From IMG/VR virus record IMGVR_UViG_2537561992_000028, positions 1 through 4,371 of that record: 4,371 bases of DNA. One strand, given 5' to 3'. The position numbers were made by a program, and so were the translations under genes. Below, in pieces: positions 1-4,371 of this stretch; within the stretch, counting starts at the first letter, position 1; each line of letters starts with the position of its first letter. Under the pieces are notes generated by a model, which saw only the letters and a program-made list of their open reading frames with translations, searched no databases and had not been told where the DNA came from. This DNA is from a virus. Lineage: Duplodnaviria > Heunggongvirae > Uroviricota > Caudoviricetes.

Positions 1-168
1 AACCACACGACCACAGAGACAGCACTGCCCGGCATCCCTGAGCCAGATATGACGCTTGAGGGAAACACGTGCACTGCCACTGACACGACGCTGTTCACCC
101 TTCAGAATATTCACCCGCCGGGTGTTCAGAGTTTTGATTCTGCCCGGTAACGTACGAAGCACAGCCAT
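1..168 (-). CDS. HNH endonuclease-like protein, N-terminal part only (gene runs off the left edge of the window)
   Basis: ATG at 168-166 with GAGGA 6 nt upstream. Translation is MAVLRTLPGRIKTLNTRRVNILKGEQRRVSGSARVSLKRHIWLRDAGQCCLCGRVV..., open to the window edge. The W-x-R-D stretch followed by C-x2-C is the usual start of the zinc-binding core of phage terminase-associated HNH nucleases. Not in the ORF track because it has no stop inside the window. Confidence 0.45.
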   Translation of the reverse strand, partial: MAVLRTLPGRIKTLNTRRVNILKGEQRRVSGSARVSLKRHIWLRDAGQCCLCGRVV

Positions 169-209
169 GTAAAATCCTCTCCATATAGCTTGTCACCAGA
201 GGAAAGAAA

Positions 210-395
210 ATGTCATCGAAAAACCGGACCCGCAGAACCACAATCCGCAATATCCGTTTCCCCAATCACATGATTGAACAGCTCAATATCGCCCTTGAAC
301 ATAAAGGTTCCGGTAACTTTTCAGCGTGGGTTATTGAAGCCTGCAGAAGAAGGCTGTCAACAGAGCGTTCGGGTATGAATTACATAATTAAGTAA
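210..395 (+). CDS. Small ribbon-helix-helix-like (DUF3950/YlcI-like) protein, 61 aa
   Basis: ATG at 210 with GAGGA at 199-203 (6-nt spacer). Basic N-terminus, then a predicted beta-strand (IRNIRFPNHMIEQL) and helix (NIALEHKGSGNFSAWVIEACRRR), the pattern of Arc/CopG-type RHH DNA binders. Diverges from the HNH gene; a similar small protein sits here in DLP12-type prophages (from memory). Confidence 0.5.
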   Translation: MSSKNRTRRTTIRNIRFPNHMIEQLNIALEHKGSGNFSAWVIEACRRRLSTERSGMNYIIK

Positions 396-500
396 CATGG
401 TGTTCACAGAACACACAGTTACCGGACACATCAGTTTTCCATTCGTCCCCCGGCAGTACAGGCTTCCCGTCTGACGGGATAGCCTGAAAAACACAGAAAA

Positions 501-665
501 TTATTTGTTATAATTAATATAACTTAACTCAAAAAAAAGCGACGAGAAAATCAGCATCAACGAGCAATAAGCGCCAATACGTGATAACAAATGGCAGCCA
601 TATTTATCTGCAGTATAAGCAATGGACAGGATAACCACACCAGAAACCGTCAGCATAAAATCCAT
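501..665 (-). CDS. Hypothetical small membrane protein (54 aa, two hydrophobic segments) in an AT-rich island
   Basis: ATG at 665-663 with GGGGAAG about 6 nt upstream. Translation MDFMLTVSGVVILSIAYTADKYGCHLLSRIGAYCSLMLIFSSLFFELSYINYNK. The track's 60-aa version starts at a TTG. AT-rich codons; could be spurious. Confidence 0.2.
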   Translation of the reverse strand: MDFMLTVSGVVILSIAYTADKYGCHLLSRIGAYCSLMLIFSSLFFELSYINYNK

Positions 666-806
666 TTGAACTTCCCCGGACAAAATCGACTCATCTAAAG
701 ATTTACAGCTCTTTTTATTATCAATATGTTAAAAGTAAAATAAACAGATGTTCAATAATACGAATACAAAAACGTGCTGAAAATCAATGAATCCATTTCT
801 GTGTTA

Positions 807-1061
807 TCAATTAATAGTGATAAACATCCGGCTTCTTCCACCATCGCACCGGACCAGCGACCATGAGGGGACAACGCCGCGCTCCGTTAACGCGGTAAAC
901 CCCGGTGTGTATCGTTTTTGATTATCCCCGCACACTCGCGCAGAGGATTCTCCCGGTCGGGCTGCGGTCTCTGTTAATGCAGGAATACGGCGACAATACC
1001 GCGCATGAATAATAAGGTCGCTCAACACACTGGCTGTAATGCAGCGGATACCATGCGGCAT
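807..1061 (-). CDS. Hypothetical ORF (84 aa); no Shine-Dalgarno, possibly a frameshifted continuation of the ORF at 1022-1246 or non-coding
   Basis: Open frame with ATG at 1061 but no SD-like sequence upstream. Overlaps the 3' end of the upstream ORF in a different frame. Arg/Cys-rich, GC-rich translation. Confidence 0.2.
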   Translation of the reverse strand: MPHGIRCITASVLSDLIIHARYCRRIPALTETAARPGESSARVCGDNQKRYTPGFTALTERGVVPSWSLVRCDGGRSRMFITIN

Positions 1062-1246
1062 TTAGCGGCATTCATCGTACACTCAACGGTTAGCTCTTCA
1101 TTCGTGGCATTCACCTGAAAGGTCCGGGAGTGTAATTGCGTACATTTACCACTGAACGAACCTTCAACAAGAACACGACCACGCTGCAAAATACGGAACG
1201 GAATTGTTCCCTGAAAAGGCTTTACGGTTACCAATAATTTCTTCAT
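1022..1246 (-). CDS. Hypothetical protein (74 aa from the ATG) directly downstream of Rz
   Basis: ATG at 1246-1244 with GGAGA 5 nt upstream, 23 nt after the Rz stop. Translation MKKLLVTVKPFQGTIPFRILQRGRVLVEGSFSGKC.... The track's start at 1264 is a TTG. No recognisable family. Confidence 0.35.
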   Translation of the reverse strand: MKKLLVTVKPFQGTIPFRILQRGRVLVEGSFSGKCTQLHSRTFQVNATNEELTVECTMNAAKCRMVSAALQPVC

Positions 1247-1269
1247 GCATTCTCCGAATAACAAAAATA

Positions 1270-1728
1270 CTAGTTAATACACTGAGTGCGGATATATTCC
1301 TGAAGCATTCTCAATGCTGCCTGGTCGCTGATGATTCCGTCTCTGATACCGAGAACGTTTCGTCCAGCAACCGGAGAGAGTTCGACGGCGGCATCATTGC
1401 CCACGCCGGAGGTGCCGGTGGCTTCACGCACGGTACCGGGGCAGGTGGCGTTGATCCGCAGGCGCTTACGACCAGCGGCAACATCAGCACGCAGAGTTTC
1501 ATTTTCAGCTCTCGCATCGGCTAATTCCCTCGAGTATTTTGCATCGAGCGCAGCAACATCGCGCTGGCGCACCTGCATATCAGTAATGGTTGCGTTTGCC
1601 AGATCCAGCTCACTGGCTTTTTTATCGCGCTGCGCTTTGTAGGTGATGGCGTTATCGCGGTAATGATTCAGCCCCAGACTAAGCGCACCACAGACCACCA
1701 GCAGAATAACGGTAAACGCGGAAAGCAT
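1270..1728 (-). CDS. Rz: Rz i-spanin (inner-membrane spanin subunit), 152 aa
   Basis: Translation from ATG 1728: [96 protein letters not shown].... This is near-collinear with lambda Rz as I recall it ([38 protein letters not shown]), with an N-terminal TM segment and a coiled-coil periplasmic domain. The track's 207-aa ORF is an in-frame upstream extension from a TTG with no homology support. Confidence 0.85.
1311..1517 (-). CDS. Rz1: Rz1 o-spanin (outer-membrane lipoprotein spanin subunit), embedded in Rz in the +1 frame
   Basis: [44 protein letters not shown].... Signal peptide with lipobox VSAC and a proline-rich mature part, matching lambda Rz1 (MLKLKMMLCVMMLPLVVVGC...CVKPPPPPAW). Lies wholly inside Rz, the lambda-type embedded arrangement. 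Confidence 0.75.
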
Positions 1729-1739
1729 TCGGTTTATGC

Positions 1740-1871
1740 TCACCCCAGCAGCCCCGACGAAGACAACATCATCCAGCCCATGGAAAGAAAAAGAGCAACC
1801 AGCATTAGTGAAAATGAAATGCCGACGATTACACAGAGGATCTTCGCCAGCATTATGAGTTTGTCTGACAT
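1740..1871 (-). CDS. Hypothetical small hydrophobic protein (43 aa) just upstream of Rz
   Basis: ATG at 1871-1869 with AAGGGG 5 nt upstream; TGA stop at 1742-1740, 11 nt before the Rz ATG. Translation [43 protein letters not shown], one long hydrophobic segment. Below the 60-aa cutoff of the ORF track; found by hand translation. Confidence 0.35.
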
Positions 1872-2041
1872 AGCTACCCCTTAATTGCCACAATTCACTG
1901 GGATACTACCCATAAAAAAGGGATGCTCCAGACCAGCAAAAATTTCCAGTTTGGTAATTGACTAATCATGAGTCGCAACTCCCTAATCAGTTTGCTAAAA
2001 TCAATCAAGGCAGCCTCCCATAGCTTACTGCCATAAACATA

Positions 2042-2078
2042 AAACCCCGTTTGCAACCAACAAACGGGGTTTTTACTT
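2042..2078 (+). terminator. Intrinsic (rho-independent) terminator hairpin in the endolysin-Rz gap
   Basis: Perfect 12-bp stem aaaccccgtttg (2042-2053) / caaacggggttt (2061-2072) with 7-nt loop. Followed on the plus strand by tt-ac-tttt-att, and on the minus strand by a shorter T-run. Looks stronger for rightward transcription but could act both ways. Confidence 0.6.
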
Positions 2079-2163
2079 TTATTCACTTGGGTTTTGCCAG
2101 TTCGCAGGATTTCGTGTTATCTGCCCGCGTTGGCCAACGTCATTTTTAAGCAAAATATTCTGC

Positions 2164-2697
2164 TTATCTGTCGATACCCCAGCACGCCAGCGCACTTTCC
2201 TGATCTCGCCGGGATACCTGACCGTAGCAATTATTTGAGCGGATACGGCAGTCTCTGCCACCGTCCTTAATCCACCAGCGAATCGCTTCGCAGGCACCTT
2301 TTCGATCACCTGCATTAATTCGTTTATAAAACGTCGACGGGAAACACTTACCGGGGCCAATGTTATACGGACAGAATGACGCGATCCCCGCTTTCTGGGG
2401 TTCGGTCAGCGGCACTTTGATGTTTTTCTCCACCCATGCCAGCGCCTTGTCACGTTCGATGGCGTTAACCTGGTCGCATTTTTCCTTCGTCAGTTTCATG
2501 CCAGGAATAACAGGCTTACCATCCACCCGGGTGGCTCCACGGCAGATGGTCCAGATACCCGCACCATCACGGTATGCCGTGGTGTGGTTACCTTCCTTTT
2601 CATCCAGAAACTGGTCGAGGATTTCAGGCGCAGACGCCCCTGCACCAATCAGCGCCAGAACGGCAGCCGACAGGCCGTATTTGATTTTTGCGTTCAT
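2164..2697 (-). CDS. R: SAR endolysin (signal-anchor-release lysozyme, glycoside hydrolase family 24)
   Basis: 177-aa ORF MNAKIKYGLSAAVLALIGAGASAPEILDQFLDEKEGNHTTAYRDGAGIWTICRGAT.... The Gly/Ala-rich weakly hydrophobic N-terminus is a typical SAR domain. The catalytic motif E-x8-D-x5-T (EGNHTTAYRDGAGIWT) is that of T4/P21-type lysozymes. No strong SD upstream. Confidence 0.9.
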   Translation of the reverse strand: MNAKIKYGLSAAVLALIGAGASAPEILDQFLDEKEGNHTTAYRDGAGIWTICRGATRVDGKPVIPGMKLTKEKCDQVNAIERDKALAWVEKNIKVPLTEPQKAGIASFCPYNIGPGKCFPSTFYKRINAGDRKGACEAIRWWIKDGGRDCRIRSNNCYGQVSRRDQESALACWGIDR

Positions 2698-2827
2698 GGA
2701 TATTTATCAGGATTTATCGGTTCCGAATCCCTGGATATGTTAAGCCTTCACCCCACCAGTGGTGGGCACTGGCGGGTTCTTAATTTCCCCGGATGATCGT
2801 GGATTACATTCCACCAGGAGATTACTT

Positions 2828-3460
2828 ATGCTTATCTATCCAGCGGCAGACCTCCGTTTACAGGGACGCAGAGCACAACCATGGGATAAAACAACCACTC
2901 ATAAATATCGTCCCGGTCAATATTATGACTTTCGTAAACACCCGGAACTGATCGAGACACACCTTGAGGATTTTGTTGAATATTCAGACAGACAAGCGAT
3001 TCAGACCTTTTTTTCTTTTGTTAAGTGGATCAACAGCAATTCATCTGCATTCGAGAGCACGGACTGCATGTTTTCAGGAACACCAAAGGTTGATGAATAC
3101 GCCCCGGTATTTGGTTGCACCCATGCGTCATCTGGCCGCTTCGAATTTTTGTTTCGCGATACGAAAATAAACCAAAATGAGCGAGCTGTCGGATGGGTAC
3201 TTAACAAACTATCGCTCTACCTTCAGAAAGAACGGCCCGATTTTTGTAAAGGAACCTTTGGCATCGTTCCCCTCATGACGGAATATACCGACTCCGGCGG
3301 TAACGAGTTCACCGGTTATCGTATTTGTGTCTATTTCGATGCTTACGGGAATGGAACAGAGGATACCTGGACTTCTCTCAACATCATGTTTGATGGCCTC
3401 ATGAAAGCCACCAAAAGAATGAGCAATGAAACAATCACTGGCGAGATGCGTCCCCTTTAA
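2828..3460 (+). CDS. Hypothetical protein of unknown function (210 aa), convergent with the late operon
   Basis: ATG at 2828 with AGGAG at 2816-2820 (7-nt spacer). About 127 codons (2828-3208) not shared with any other long frame. TAA at 3458-3460, followed by a short hairpin and T7 run. The track's 233-aa version starts at a GTG at 2759. No recognisable motif. Confidence 0.45.
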   Translation: MLIYPAADLRLQGRRAQPWDKTTTHKYRPGQYYDFRKHPELIETHLEDFVEYSDRQAIQTFFSFVKWINSNSSAFESTDCMFSGTPKVDEYAPVFGCTHASSGRFEFLFRDTKINQNERAVGWVLNKLSLYLQKERPDFCKGTFGIVPLMTEYTDSGGNEFTGYRICVYFDAYGNGTEDTWTSLNIMFDGLMKATKRMSNETITGEMRPL

Positions 3461-4000
3461 AAAATTATCCAGAATCTCACTATTTGCAGAGCGCTCTCTG
3501 TTTTTTTGAATACGGAAACACTCTGCGAGATTTCTGCTCATCACTTTCCGGCAATAATCGTAAAACGCCGCGAACTGCTCATCACGGCGTTTTTTTTCAC
3601 CTTCGGAAGGGATCTGCACCGACAGTTTTTTATTCAGTTCAACGACGCTGTTCTCCAGTTTTTCAATGCGTGATTCGATATCATCTTTTTCTGACTGTAT
3701 CGTGTTATATGCATTGTTAATTTGTATGGTATACCGCTCTTCTGAACAGAGGCGCTTTTCCGGCAACGGTTCGTTCCCTTCACATAACCCGGCAGCAATA
3801 TCCATGAAAAACTGCTTCGCCTTCTTTTTCGCCTCAGCTTCGTAAAACTCCAGCGGGGCACCTTCAACACGATCAAGATCAATCACCACATTTGGCAACA
3901 ACAGTGACGTATACCCACCAGTTTCCAGCGCCACAGTAACAGTAATCTTATCCGGGTAAATATTTATCCCTTTAACAACCAGTTCGTATTGTTTATTCAT
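3209..4000 (-). CDS. Hypothetical protein of unknown function (263 aa), directly downstream of and translationally coupled to the holin
   Basis: ATG at 4000-3998, 3 nt after the holin TAG, with GGGGAGAG overlapping the last holin codons. About 180 codons (3461-4000) not shared with the plus-strand ORF. Predicted beta-rich N-terminus, central charged helical/coiled-coil stretch (EKDDIESRIEKLENSVVELNKKL), and a C-terminal part that overlaps the convergent ORF. No recognisable catalytic motif. Confidence 0.55.
   Translation of the reverse strand: MNKQYELVVKGINIYPDKITVTVALETGGYTSLLLPNVVIDLDRVEGAPLEFYEAEAKKKAKQFFMDIAAGLCEGNEPLPEKRLCSEERYTIQINNAYNTIQSEKDDIESRIEKLENSVVELNKKLSVQIPSEGEKKRRDEQFAAFYDYCRKVMSRNLAECFRIQKNRERSANSEILDNFLKGTHLASDCFIAHSFGGFHEAIKHDVERSPGILCSIPVSIEIDTNTITGELVTAGVGIFRHEGNDAKGSFTKIGPFFLKVER
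3486..3507 (+). terminator. Weak terminator-like hairpin plus T7 run 3' of the plus-strand ORF (lies inside the minus-strand ORF)
   Basis: cagag (3487-3491) / ctctg (3496-3500) 5-bp stem with 4-nt loop, then ttttttt at 3501-3507, starting 26 nt after the TAA at 3458-3460. Stem is short, so function is uncertain. Confidence 0.3.
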
Positions 4001-4003
4001 CGT

Positions 4004-4210
4004 CTACTCTCCCCGCGCCGCCTTACGACGGTCCTCTCTGATTTTGAAATACAGGTTAGTAAGATACGTCAGCAGGCCAAACAGCAGACTCCCCAGCACA
4101 CCTATCGCCACCCACTGGGACGGAGAGACTTTGTCCAGCAGCTGCAGTAACCAGTATCCCGTCCCCACCGCTGACGTGGTGTATGACACACCTGTTGTGA
4201 TTTTTTCCAT
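4004..4210 (-). CDS. S: Class II holin (pinholin, phage 21 S-like)
   Basis: 68-aa [71 protein letters not shown]. Near-collinear with the phage 21 S holin as I recall it (...[14 protein letters not shown]...[22 protein letters not shown]). Two TM segments; GGAG about 11 nt upstream. Confidence 0.9.
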
Positions 4211-4254
4211 CTGATGTATGTCTCCGTCACCGCCGACAGAAAATGAAAGTAAAG

Positions 4255-4290
4255 AAAAACAAAAAAACCGCCAGTGTCACCCACTGACGG
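4255..4290 (-). terminator. Strong intrinsic terminator upstream of the holin, probably the late-leader terminator (tR' equivalent) read through by Q antitermination
   Basis: Minus-strand stem ccgtcagtg / cactggcgg (9 bp, one G-U pair, 5-nt loop) at 4268-4290, followed by T7-G-T5 (complement of 4255-4267), about 45 nt upstream of the holin ATG. The tR' assignment is by analogy with lambda and phage 82. Confidence 0.6.
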
Positions 4291-4371
4291 CCAACTCCGG
4301 GAGCCGTGATTATGGCATTCAGGCTCTGCTAAAAATGCCAGATAACATTCCGGCCTCCCCTGATTCAGGTT

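Follow-up and report, generated by a model that had tools for sequence, protein, structure and literature searches.

The stretch of DNA analyzed here, hereafter the window, comprises 4,371 nucleotides (nt) of a virus of the Caudoviricetes (IMG/VR record IMGVR_UViG_2537561992_000028, positions 1 to 4,371). It raises the question of what an open reading frame (ORF) of 210 amino acids (aa) on the plus strand, at 2828..3460, is doing within a late operon that runs on the minus strand. An earlier note on this DNA, made from the sequence alone, had placed the ORF inside such an operon and read it as a moron that might be active in the lysogen. The placement is borne out by its flanks, namely holin, DUF1327, lysozyme, and Rz/Rz1 genes, all of which lie on the minus strand. 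That note had not mentioned that the 3' 252 nt (83 codons) of the plus-strand ORF overlap a minus-strand ORF. Taken together, our comparisons favor a locus that combines a lysogen moron with a late-strand ORF overprinted on its last third, which we regard as the best overall explanation and, judging from comparative sequence data, as probably correct.

The plus-strand ORF is almost certainly a genuine protein gene. It runs from ATG to TAA and is preceded by a Shine-Dalgarno (SD) sequence, AGGAG at 2816..2820, separated from the ATG at 2828 by the 7-nt spacer ATTACTT; this site, to which the earlier note had pointed, can be read directly in the window, and relatives carry AAGG or AGGA at comparable spacing. 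Because all relatives begin at the position of this ATG (with MLIYP, MLVYP, or MIVVS), the start was placed at 2828, and a GTG at 2759, which would give a protein of 233 aa, was ruled out. Full-length relatives in a large protein database (210-219 aa; 65, 64, 54, and 53% identity) align with zero indels, and relatives overall span 209-219 aa and 38-65% identity. Among diverged IMG/VR copies, 19 of 19 carry an intact gene of 209-213 aa. Differences between the window and a homologue in a prophage remnant (locus L006) fall on the first, second, and third plus codon positions as 57/34/119, and inside the overlap as 25/14/44. Since position 1 of the plus frame is position 3 of the minus frame, this third-position excess is the opposite of what would be expected of a minus-frame gene.

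A profile search of 1.84 billion representative sequences returned 251 clusters at E ≤ 1e-3 and 183 at E ≤ 1e-10; the clusters are defined at the 50% identity level, and nearly all members are 200-220 aa long. Those with names, from Pseudomonas, Hafnia, Obesumbacterium, Salmonella, and E. coli, are all called 'hypothetical protein', and the 210-aa protein itself stands in UniProt as A0AAN3H6X0_ECOLX, 'uncharacterized'. No close relatives appeared when one genome per species was scanned. An AlphaFold2 model built from an 89-sequence alignment was highly confident (predicted local distance difference test [pLDDT] 95.1, predicted template modeling score [pTM] 0.91). The plus frame thus displays purifying selection, constant length, and a foldable product, the three features looked for in a coding gene. 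The reverse assignment, in which the plus ORF would be a shadow of the minus-strand DUF1327 gene, could appeal to current annotation: the Prokaryotic Genome Annotation Pipeline (PGAP) leaves the plus ORF uncalled in most complete genomes, and phage records annotate the minus ORF only. This assignment is refuted by the comparative data on codon bias, family size, and model, and we give it virtually no credence. Homologues occur without any DUF1327 gene, including on non-phage chromosomes; the third-position bias lies in the plus frame of a family of 251 clusters with a model at pLDDT 95; and only 252 of the 633 nt are overlapped.

The product, a member of a large family without a name, is predicted to be soluble and of the alpha/beta type; its model comprises an N-terminal lobe together with four long antiparallel strands and two long helices. 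We found no match for it in Pfam, PHROGs, NCBIfam, or PADLOC, none for four close homologues in NCBIfam and PADLOC, and none for 89 family members in Pfam. A sequence-profile search of the PDB gave no match, and Foldseek comparison of the model with the PDB and BFVD returned nothing convincing and no close fold. The argument for a function must therefore rest on context. Nearly invariant positions are R15, P18, W19, Y32, P39, I42, L46, E47, D48, F61, N69, S73, E76, D79, R104, R110, N115, G163, and G174. With low confidence, we suggest from the model that the polar ones among them (R15, W19, Y32, E47, D48, N69, S73, E76, D79, R104, R110, and N115), which alternate on the central strands, may form a putative ligand- or nucleotide-binding cleft or a metal-dependent catalytic one.

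The genomic context points to a moron cassette, and we consider this identification very likely. Blastn comparison with the phages PhiR12_1 and Stx2-86 delimits a cassette-specific segment at 2774..3551. Both phages keep the flanks (76 bp upstream of the lysozyme gene R, up to 2773, and the DUF1327 gene from 3551 or 3751), and each holds another small plus-strand gene between them, such that the gene is present in some phages and replaced in close relatives at the same position. Its base composition is also unlike that of its neighbors, with a G+C content of 0.44-0.46 in the gene (0.41-0.46 across the cassette stretch) compared with 0.54 in the lysozyme and holin genes; the DUF1327 part is similarly low, at 0.43. 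At least six slots in lambdoid late operons harbor homologues, antisense to the operon every time, in E. coli, Salmonella, Hafnia, Yersinia, and metagenomes. The tail I-J slot is occupied in at least 17 IMG/VR prophage contigs, Hafnia alvei, and Yersinia pseudotuberculosis. At the tape measure gene, the homologue lies directly after the gene in L058 and, in L057, upstream of a 212-aa ORF plus the tape measure gene. Another slot extends from the Q/Kiwa region to the holin gene of a P22-like Salmonella prophage (L009), and others lie upstream of further holins in E. coli and beside sodC in a Salmonella prophage remnant. In complete E. coli genomes, the cassette is present in 133 of 5426, mostly Shiga toxin-producing E. 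coli, at ≥ 99% identity and in up to four copies.

Several further observations concern these insertion sites. The stretch 2698..2773 is 88-97% identical in PhiR12_1 and Stx2-86 (L004 2499..2610; L005 2499..2627), and the plus-strand genes downstream of it encode 86 aa and 104 aa, neither with a Pfam match; from sequence, the 76-bp stretch looks like a fixed promoter stub with exchangeable cargo. L009 carries a Kiwa system (KwaA/KwaB) between Q and holin at 9618..11257, from which this region appears to act as an accessory and defense hotspot. Distant family members, at about 30% identity, sit in ordinary chromosomal neighborhoods, from which the phage clade looks like a captured cellular gene; the neighborhoods of L013, L015, and L017 showed no recurrent partner gene.

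Signals that could allow the cassette to be expressed on its own were found on both sides of the gene. The top position weight matrix (PWM) match upstream of the ATG is a candidate sigma-70 promoter on the plus strand at 2713..2741 (-35 TTTATC at 2713..2718, a 17-nt spacer, and -10 TATGTT at 2736..2741). It predicts a 5' untranslated region (UTR) of about 80 nt and lies within the 76-bp stretch common to phages with other cargo. The top match keeps a near-constant place in relatives, with the -10 at -92/-92/-91/-86 from the ATG in the window, L006, L009, and L021, respectively. Abutting the candidate -35 is a 9-mer, TATCAGGAT (2705..2713, plus strand), a possible regulator site that recurs exactly at -99 to -123 from the ATG in five lineages: the window, L011/42/43, L012/53, L044/47/48/51, and L021, the last from Hafnia. 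In the same upstream comparison it was missing from L056, L057, L058, L064, L006, and L009. Downstream, a hairpin at 3486..3501 and a run of seven T residues at 3501..3507 form a candidate plus-strand terminator (3486..3507) inside the minus-strand ORF, and relatives at I-J loci have hairpins at the matching position, about 25-45 nt past the stop. Two results speak against these signals. A strict sigma-70 consensus scan of 2600..3700 found no promoter, which leaves a promoter-like site whose position is conserved. The hairpin and T-run that the earlier note had proposed are present as described, but the structure is weak and not above chance (-8.2 kcal/mol, z = -0.25), with one terminator-like site in the scan compared with 0.9 expected. 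The moron interpretation is supported by the swapped cargo within the same flanks, the at least six antisense slots, and the position-conserved promoter-like element. As a separate observation, a near-palindrome, CACCCCACCAGTGGTGGGCAC, occupies 2749..2770, within the predicted 5' UTR and, on the other strand, the lysozyme leader region; L006 and L009 have hairpins of different sequence at the aligned place.

Morons in the sense of Juhala and Hendrix were reportedly described in HK97 and HK022, with lambda bor and lom and Gifsy-2 sodCI as examples. The present cassette resembles lambdoid morons in being an extra gene in some of a set of otherwise similar phages, placed between late genes, with promoter-like and terminator-like signals of its own and a G+C content below that of its neighbors. 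Like lambda bor, it adjoins the lysis genes on the opposite strand, and in a Salmonella prophage remnant a homologue is found next to sodC. It differs in that its product is predicted to be cytoplasmic and belongs to an uncharacterized family, whereas those of bor, lom, and sodCI are outer-membrane or periplasmic virulence factors, and in that the cassette occupies at least six slots and part of its coding sequence is apparently used on the other strand. Its position between the holin/DUF1327 and lysozyme genes, in the window and in Shiga toxin (Stx) phages, could instead suggest an accessory of the lysis cassette that tunes holin or endolysin timing. We consider such a role highly improbable: the gene and the lysis genes occupy opposite strands, its relatives are mostly located in tail operons or ordinary chromosomal contexts, and related phages lyse without it.

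We then turn to the minus strand beneath the last third of the gene. The overlapping coding segment (3209..3460, minus strand) makes up the C-terminal end of the minus ORF, 83 codons long (LKGTHLASD...GPFFLKVER), and is retained as an ORF by phage-borne relatives. The antisense frame is fused in frame to DUF1327 in the window, giving an ORF of 263 aa. Across phage-borne lineages (the window, L011, L012, L044, L056, L057, L058, L064, L021, and L009), the minus frame is open opposite the last 82-87 codons in 10 of 10, and the open stretch ends at the codon of the conserved Leu127/128. Three further relatives have a broken frame: the remnant L006 plus L015 and L017, which are not from phages. Codon choice in the sense gene follows the same boundary. 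TTA, CTA, and TCA, the sense codons that create antisense stops, make up 70 of 168 Leu/Ser codons upstream versus 1 of 112 in the overlap, pooled over the 10 phage-borne lineages. Of nine lineages in which Leu/Ser codons were shuffled within each gene, L009 gave a P value of 0.19 and the other eight gave values of 0.054, 0.002, 0.029, 0.027, 0.0042, 0.00015, 0.007, and 0.013.

In many pairs, synonymous divergence is also lower in the overlap. Within the clade, fourfold-degenerate sites diverge by 65-87% upstream versus 30-48% in the overlap, and pairs that include the frame-broken L006 diverge by 52-72% there. By the Nei-Gojobori method, the synonymous rate (dS) is saturated upstream versus 0.65-1.0 in the overlap, with similar nonsynonymous rates (dN). 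Antisense aa identity in the overlap approximates sense identity (0.71 versus 0.72, for example), and upstream it is about half of it. At the I-J loci, the antisense ORF has its own ATG 3-11 codons beyond the plus-gene stop and about 30 nt past the stop of gene I and a small hairpin, and good SD sequences precede this ATG (AGGAGGAAAAATG, GGAGGCAATATG, GGAGAGATGTTATG, AGGAGCACCCTCATG). Such SD-plus-ATG starts were found in L011, L012, L021, L044, L056, L058, and L064, and gene callers sometimes report the antisense ORF, as 89-aa 'hypothetical proteins' in Enterobacter asburiae and Yersinia pseudotuberculosis. By the codon shuffles and the pooled counts of stop-type codons, the frame is conserved beyond what the sense frame imposes, as is looked for in an overlapping gene. 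Among the peptides that would be unique to the two products are GSFTKIGPFFLK, from the antisense tail, and HDVERSPGILCSIPVSIEIDTNTITGELVTAGVGIFR. These evolutionary signatures suggest that the antisense ORF is probably functional. With a conserved ORF opposite its final third, the gene has a convergent layout that looks like a designed feature and not only a conflict with late transcription.

Natural deletions separate the two frames. In L062/L063, a deletion of window positions 2724..3072 has removed the promoter -10, the start codon, and 82 sense codons, and between the holin and lysozyme genes a 178-aa minus ORF, tail included, has stayed intact. L062 differs from the window at 24 of 135 positions in the sense-only part and at 19 of 249 in the overlap. 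L061 lacks 2868..3069 and the four bases 3104..3107, and its antisense ORF is intact, with 104 aa and its own ATG. L006 is the reverse case, having kept the sense gene and lost the antisense frame. The plus gene is also interrupted in E. coli by an IS3 insertion and by a 1-bp deletion at 3006, in a T-run, which leaves a plus allele of 113 aa on hundreds of E. coli contigs; both lesions lie outside the overlap. The earlier note had named frame-disrupting indels in relatives that spare the minus-strand frame as evidence against the gene. They do exist (the 3006 deletion, the IS3 insertion, and the deletions in L061 and L062), but as a minority of decayed alleles, with all deeper relatives intact. 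The 3006 deletion (window 3002..3010) adjoins a T7 run and could be a slippage-prone inactivation site or, in part, a sequencing artifact.

These deletions bear on the chief alternative, in which the plus gene is a real moron and the minus tail a non-functional shadow, produced by read-through of DUF1327, with the small ORFs after gene I arising by chance or hitch-hiking. Because DUF1327 profiles stop at residue 168, read-through into the insert was in fact what we assumed initially; this idea was downgraded by the open frame, the depletion of stop-type codons, the SD-plus-ATG starts, and the knock-out loci. A number of observations nevertheless weigh on the side of this alternative and against a functional overprinted ORF. 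Antisense ORFs in frame -1 are a common by-product of coding sequence, and shadow ORFs in this frame are the commonest kind. The antisense product is poorly modeled by AlphaFold2 (pLDDT 59, pTM 0.45, from 13 sequences), matches no family, and is without relatives at any other type of locus. The PHROG and Pfam models of DUF1327 end by residue 168, PGAP treats the minus ORF as a truncated pseudogene, and in complete genomes it usually annotates neither the plus gene nor the antisense tail. The tail in the window has no nearby SD-plus-ATG start of its own and relies on the DUF1327 fusion; the one internal ATG, at about 3541, is weak. Mosaicism among phages can look like a drop in synonymous divergence and could account for part of the lowered values: it occurs within the gene, L056 and L064 sharing 0.87 of aa upstream versus 0.98 in the overlap, and in several deep pairs synonymous divergence is not lowered in the overlap. 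Finally, the frequent inactivation of the plus gene in E. coli implies that selection on it there is weak.

What the shadow interpretation leaves unexplained is that only 1 of 112 codons in the overlap is of the stop type, as against 70 of 168 upstream, in ten lineages whose synonymous sites are otherwise near saturation. Good SD-plus-ATG starts in six lineages also argue against it, as do L061 and L062, where an intact frame has outlasted the sense gene, and the decay of the frame in precisely those cases in which late expression does not matter (the remnant L006 as well as L015 and L017, which are not from phages). We therefore hold the shadow interpretation to be possible but rather unlikely.

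A second alternative accepts selection on the open frame and denies a role to the peptide. Here, the frame would stay open only to let ribosomes pass along the late mRNA, limiting Rho-dependent polarity or mRNA decay in the I-J or holin-lysozyme interval. The position of the ORF, which begins right past the upstream late gene with a good SD, its occurrence in several late-operon slots, and a product that is poorly predicted and without relatives would all fit. Ribosome passage would, however, cover about 270 of the approximately 800 nt of the insert, with about 500 nt staying untranslated, and Q-modified polymerase is already termination-resistant, as is established for lambda. Moreover, aa identity is no lower in the antisense frame than in the sense frame, and sites synonymous in the sense frame are under constraint, which points to selection on the sequence and not only on its openness. 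We consider this explanation improbable.

A functional overprinted ORF would have precedents in bacteria. Antisense overlapping genes have been described in E. coli O157:H7 and Pseudomonas, including the ano and oloz genes (PMC5960689, PMC9927249) and long overlapping genes (PMC8850804). As in those cases, the ORF lies antisense within an older 'mother' gene, in frame -1, and is taxonomically restricted, consistent with overprinting. The evidence here is evolutionary (conservation of the ORF across genera, synonymous constraint, SD-plus-ATG starts, and survival past loss of the mother gene), in contrast to the expression-based evidence for the known examples. The locus is also found in prophages, whereas the overlapping genes of EDL933 are explicitly outside phage regions, and its two strands belong to opposed programs, lysogenic and late.

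We propose the following model for the overprinted moron. The cassette, arranged as promoter-like element (2713..2741), SD, gene, and hairpin, lies antisense to the late operon of enterobacterial lambdoid prophages, Stx1a and Stx2a phages among them. In the lysogen, where the late operon would be silent or terminated, the moron would be transcribed from its own promoter. Upon induction, Q-antiterminated late transcription would cross the cassette on the other strand and may shut the moron off through polymerase collision and antisense RNA. The late-strand ORF of about 88-95 aa that overprints the last 83 codons would then be translated; in the window, this late-phase product would be the tail of the DUF1327 protein. 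One stretch of DNA would in this way give one product in lysogeny and another in lytic growth.

As to what these products do, we can offer tentative suggestions. Our preferred guess, although we regard such a defense and antidote role as unlikely, is that the moron might act on the host or on phages to the advantage of the lysogen and that the late antisense product might be its counter-factor. A more specific version, which we put forward as speculation with little probability behind it, is a two-faced module: a lysogen effector, possibly an anti-phage or host-modifying enzyme, that would carry in its last 83 codons an antisense antidote readable only by Q-antiterminated late transcription. 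If true, the prophage would neutralize its own moron on going lytic. This would explain why the antisense ORF is kept after loss of the effector, as protection against copies in co-resident prophages, and also why only the effector persists in a remnant that cannot be induced. An analogy, and no more than that, is offered by BstA with its aba element, a prophage defense gene with self-immunity. The proposed likeness is that of a prophage accessory gene, active in the lysogen and coupled to an element that spares its own lytic cycle, and one plus-gene homologue lies near a Kiwa system. The differences are that the plus gene has no PADLOC match, that the proposed immunity element is an opposite-strand protein, and that distant members of the plus-gene family occur in contexts that are neither phage nor island.

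ORF calling and Pfam/PHROG profile searches identify the window as a whole as a lambdoid lysis region on the minus strand. A P21-type class II holin gene (4004..4210, minus; PF04971, E = 8.8e-33) is followed by the 263-aa ORF (3209..4000, minus), which comprises a DUF1327 domain, a coiled-coil-like middle, and the fused antisense-encoded tail. The DUF1327/YdfR domain covers residues 1-96 only (nt 3713..4000, minus; PF07041, E = 7.5e-34, 116.3 bits against a cut-off of 25), and the PHROG 2091 match is limited to residues 1-168. RefSeq annotates this ORF as a partial pseudogene only (3752..4000), and the full 263-aa protein is called in GenBank phage records and nr. Its gene follows the holin gene, as does DUF1327/YdfR (PF07041) in the Qin and Stx phages, and differs in its C-terminal 95 residues, which lie outside the family, are encoded antisense to the moron, and form a separate small gene in other phages. 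The remaining lysis genes are a SAR-type lysozyme, R (2164..2697, minus; PF00959, E = 1.3e-25), and Rz with Rz1 embedded within it (1270..1740, minus); a YlcI-like gene lies at 210..395 on the plus strand. Over 2035..4371 the window matches a prophage of E. coli O26:H11 11368 with 98.5% identity, and over 2069..4371 it matches the Stx1a phage Stx1_14040 (L002) with 98.2%; the stretch 2700..4003 is 100% identical in both. An Rfam search of the window found no RNA family.

Other features of the region were noted in passing. Proteins encoded after the holin gene are modular (window 3552..4000 and 1022..1264; L061 3357..3902; L005 2951..3757): the N-terminal module is either DUF1327 or a domain resembling a 74-aa ORF at 1025..1246 of the window, which has no Pfam match, and both are joined to a common coiled-coil segment, EKLENSVVELNKKLS...RRDEQFAAFYDYC, and then to variable C-termini. 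Window positions 451..900 are AT-rich (G+C content 0.36-0.39) and hold a 60-aa hydrophobic ORF (501..683, minus) without a Pfam match. At the matching place between the YlcI-like gene and Rz, the O26 prophage has a PerC-family regulator that is not kept in the window, and this stretch may be another variable accessory slot.

The protein, as an 'uncharacterized' database entry, and the moron as a type of element are already known. For this gene, its conserved antisense orientation across slots, the embedded late-strand ORF, and the insertion slot, our searches of the literature turned up no description. The cassette is present in about 2.5% of complete E. coli genomes, the majority of them Shiga-toxin producers of O26, O145, O157, O103, O111, and O91, and it lies inside Stx1a and Stx2a phages, adjoining the lysis genes that release the toxin. 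Standard annotation mostly misses the plus gene and marks the minus ORF as a defective DUF1327 gene. As a real gene from a large unnamed family whose fold is predicted confidently and for which no relative has been solved, the plus ORF makes a defined target for the discovery of function. If the antisense ORF is real, it would serve as a warning that gene callers forbidding long overlaps lose real phage genes, and the locus would offer a clean system in which to study overprinting and strand-switch regulation. An antisense gene pair of this kind, backed by evolutionary evidence and located in a temperate phage, would then be rare, and its two strands would be wired to opposite programs of the life cycle.

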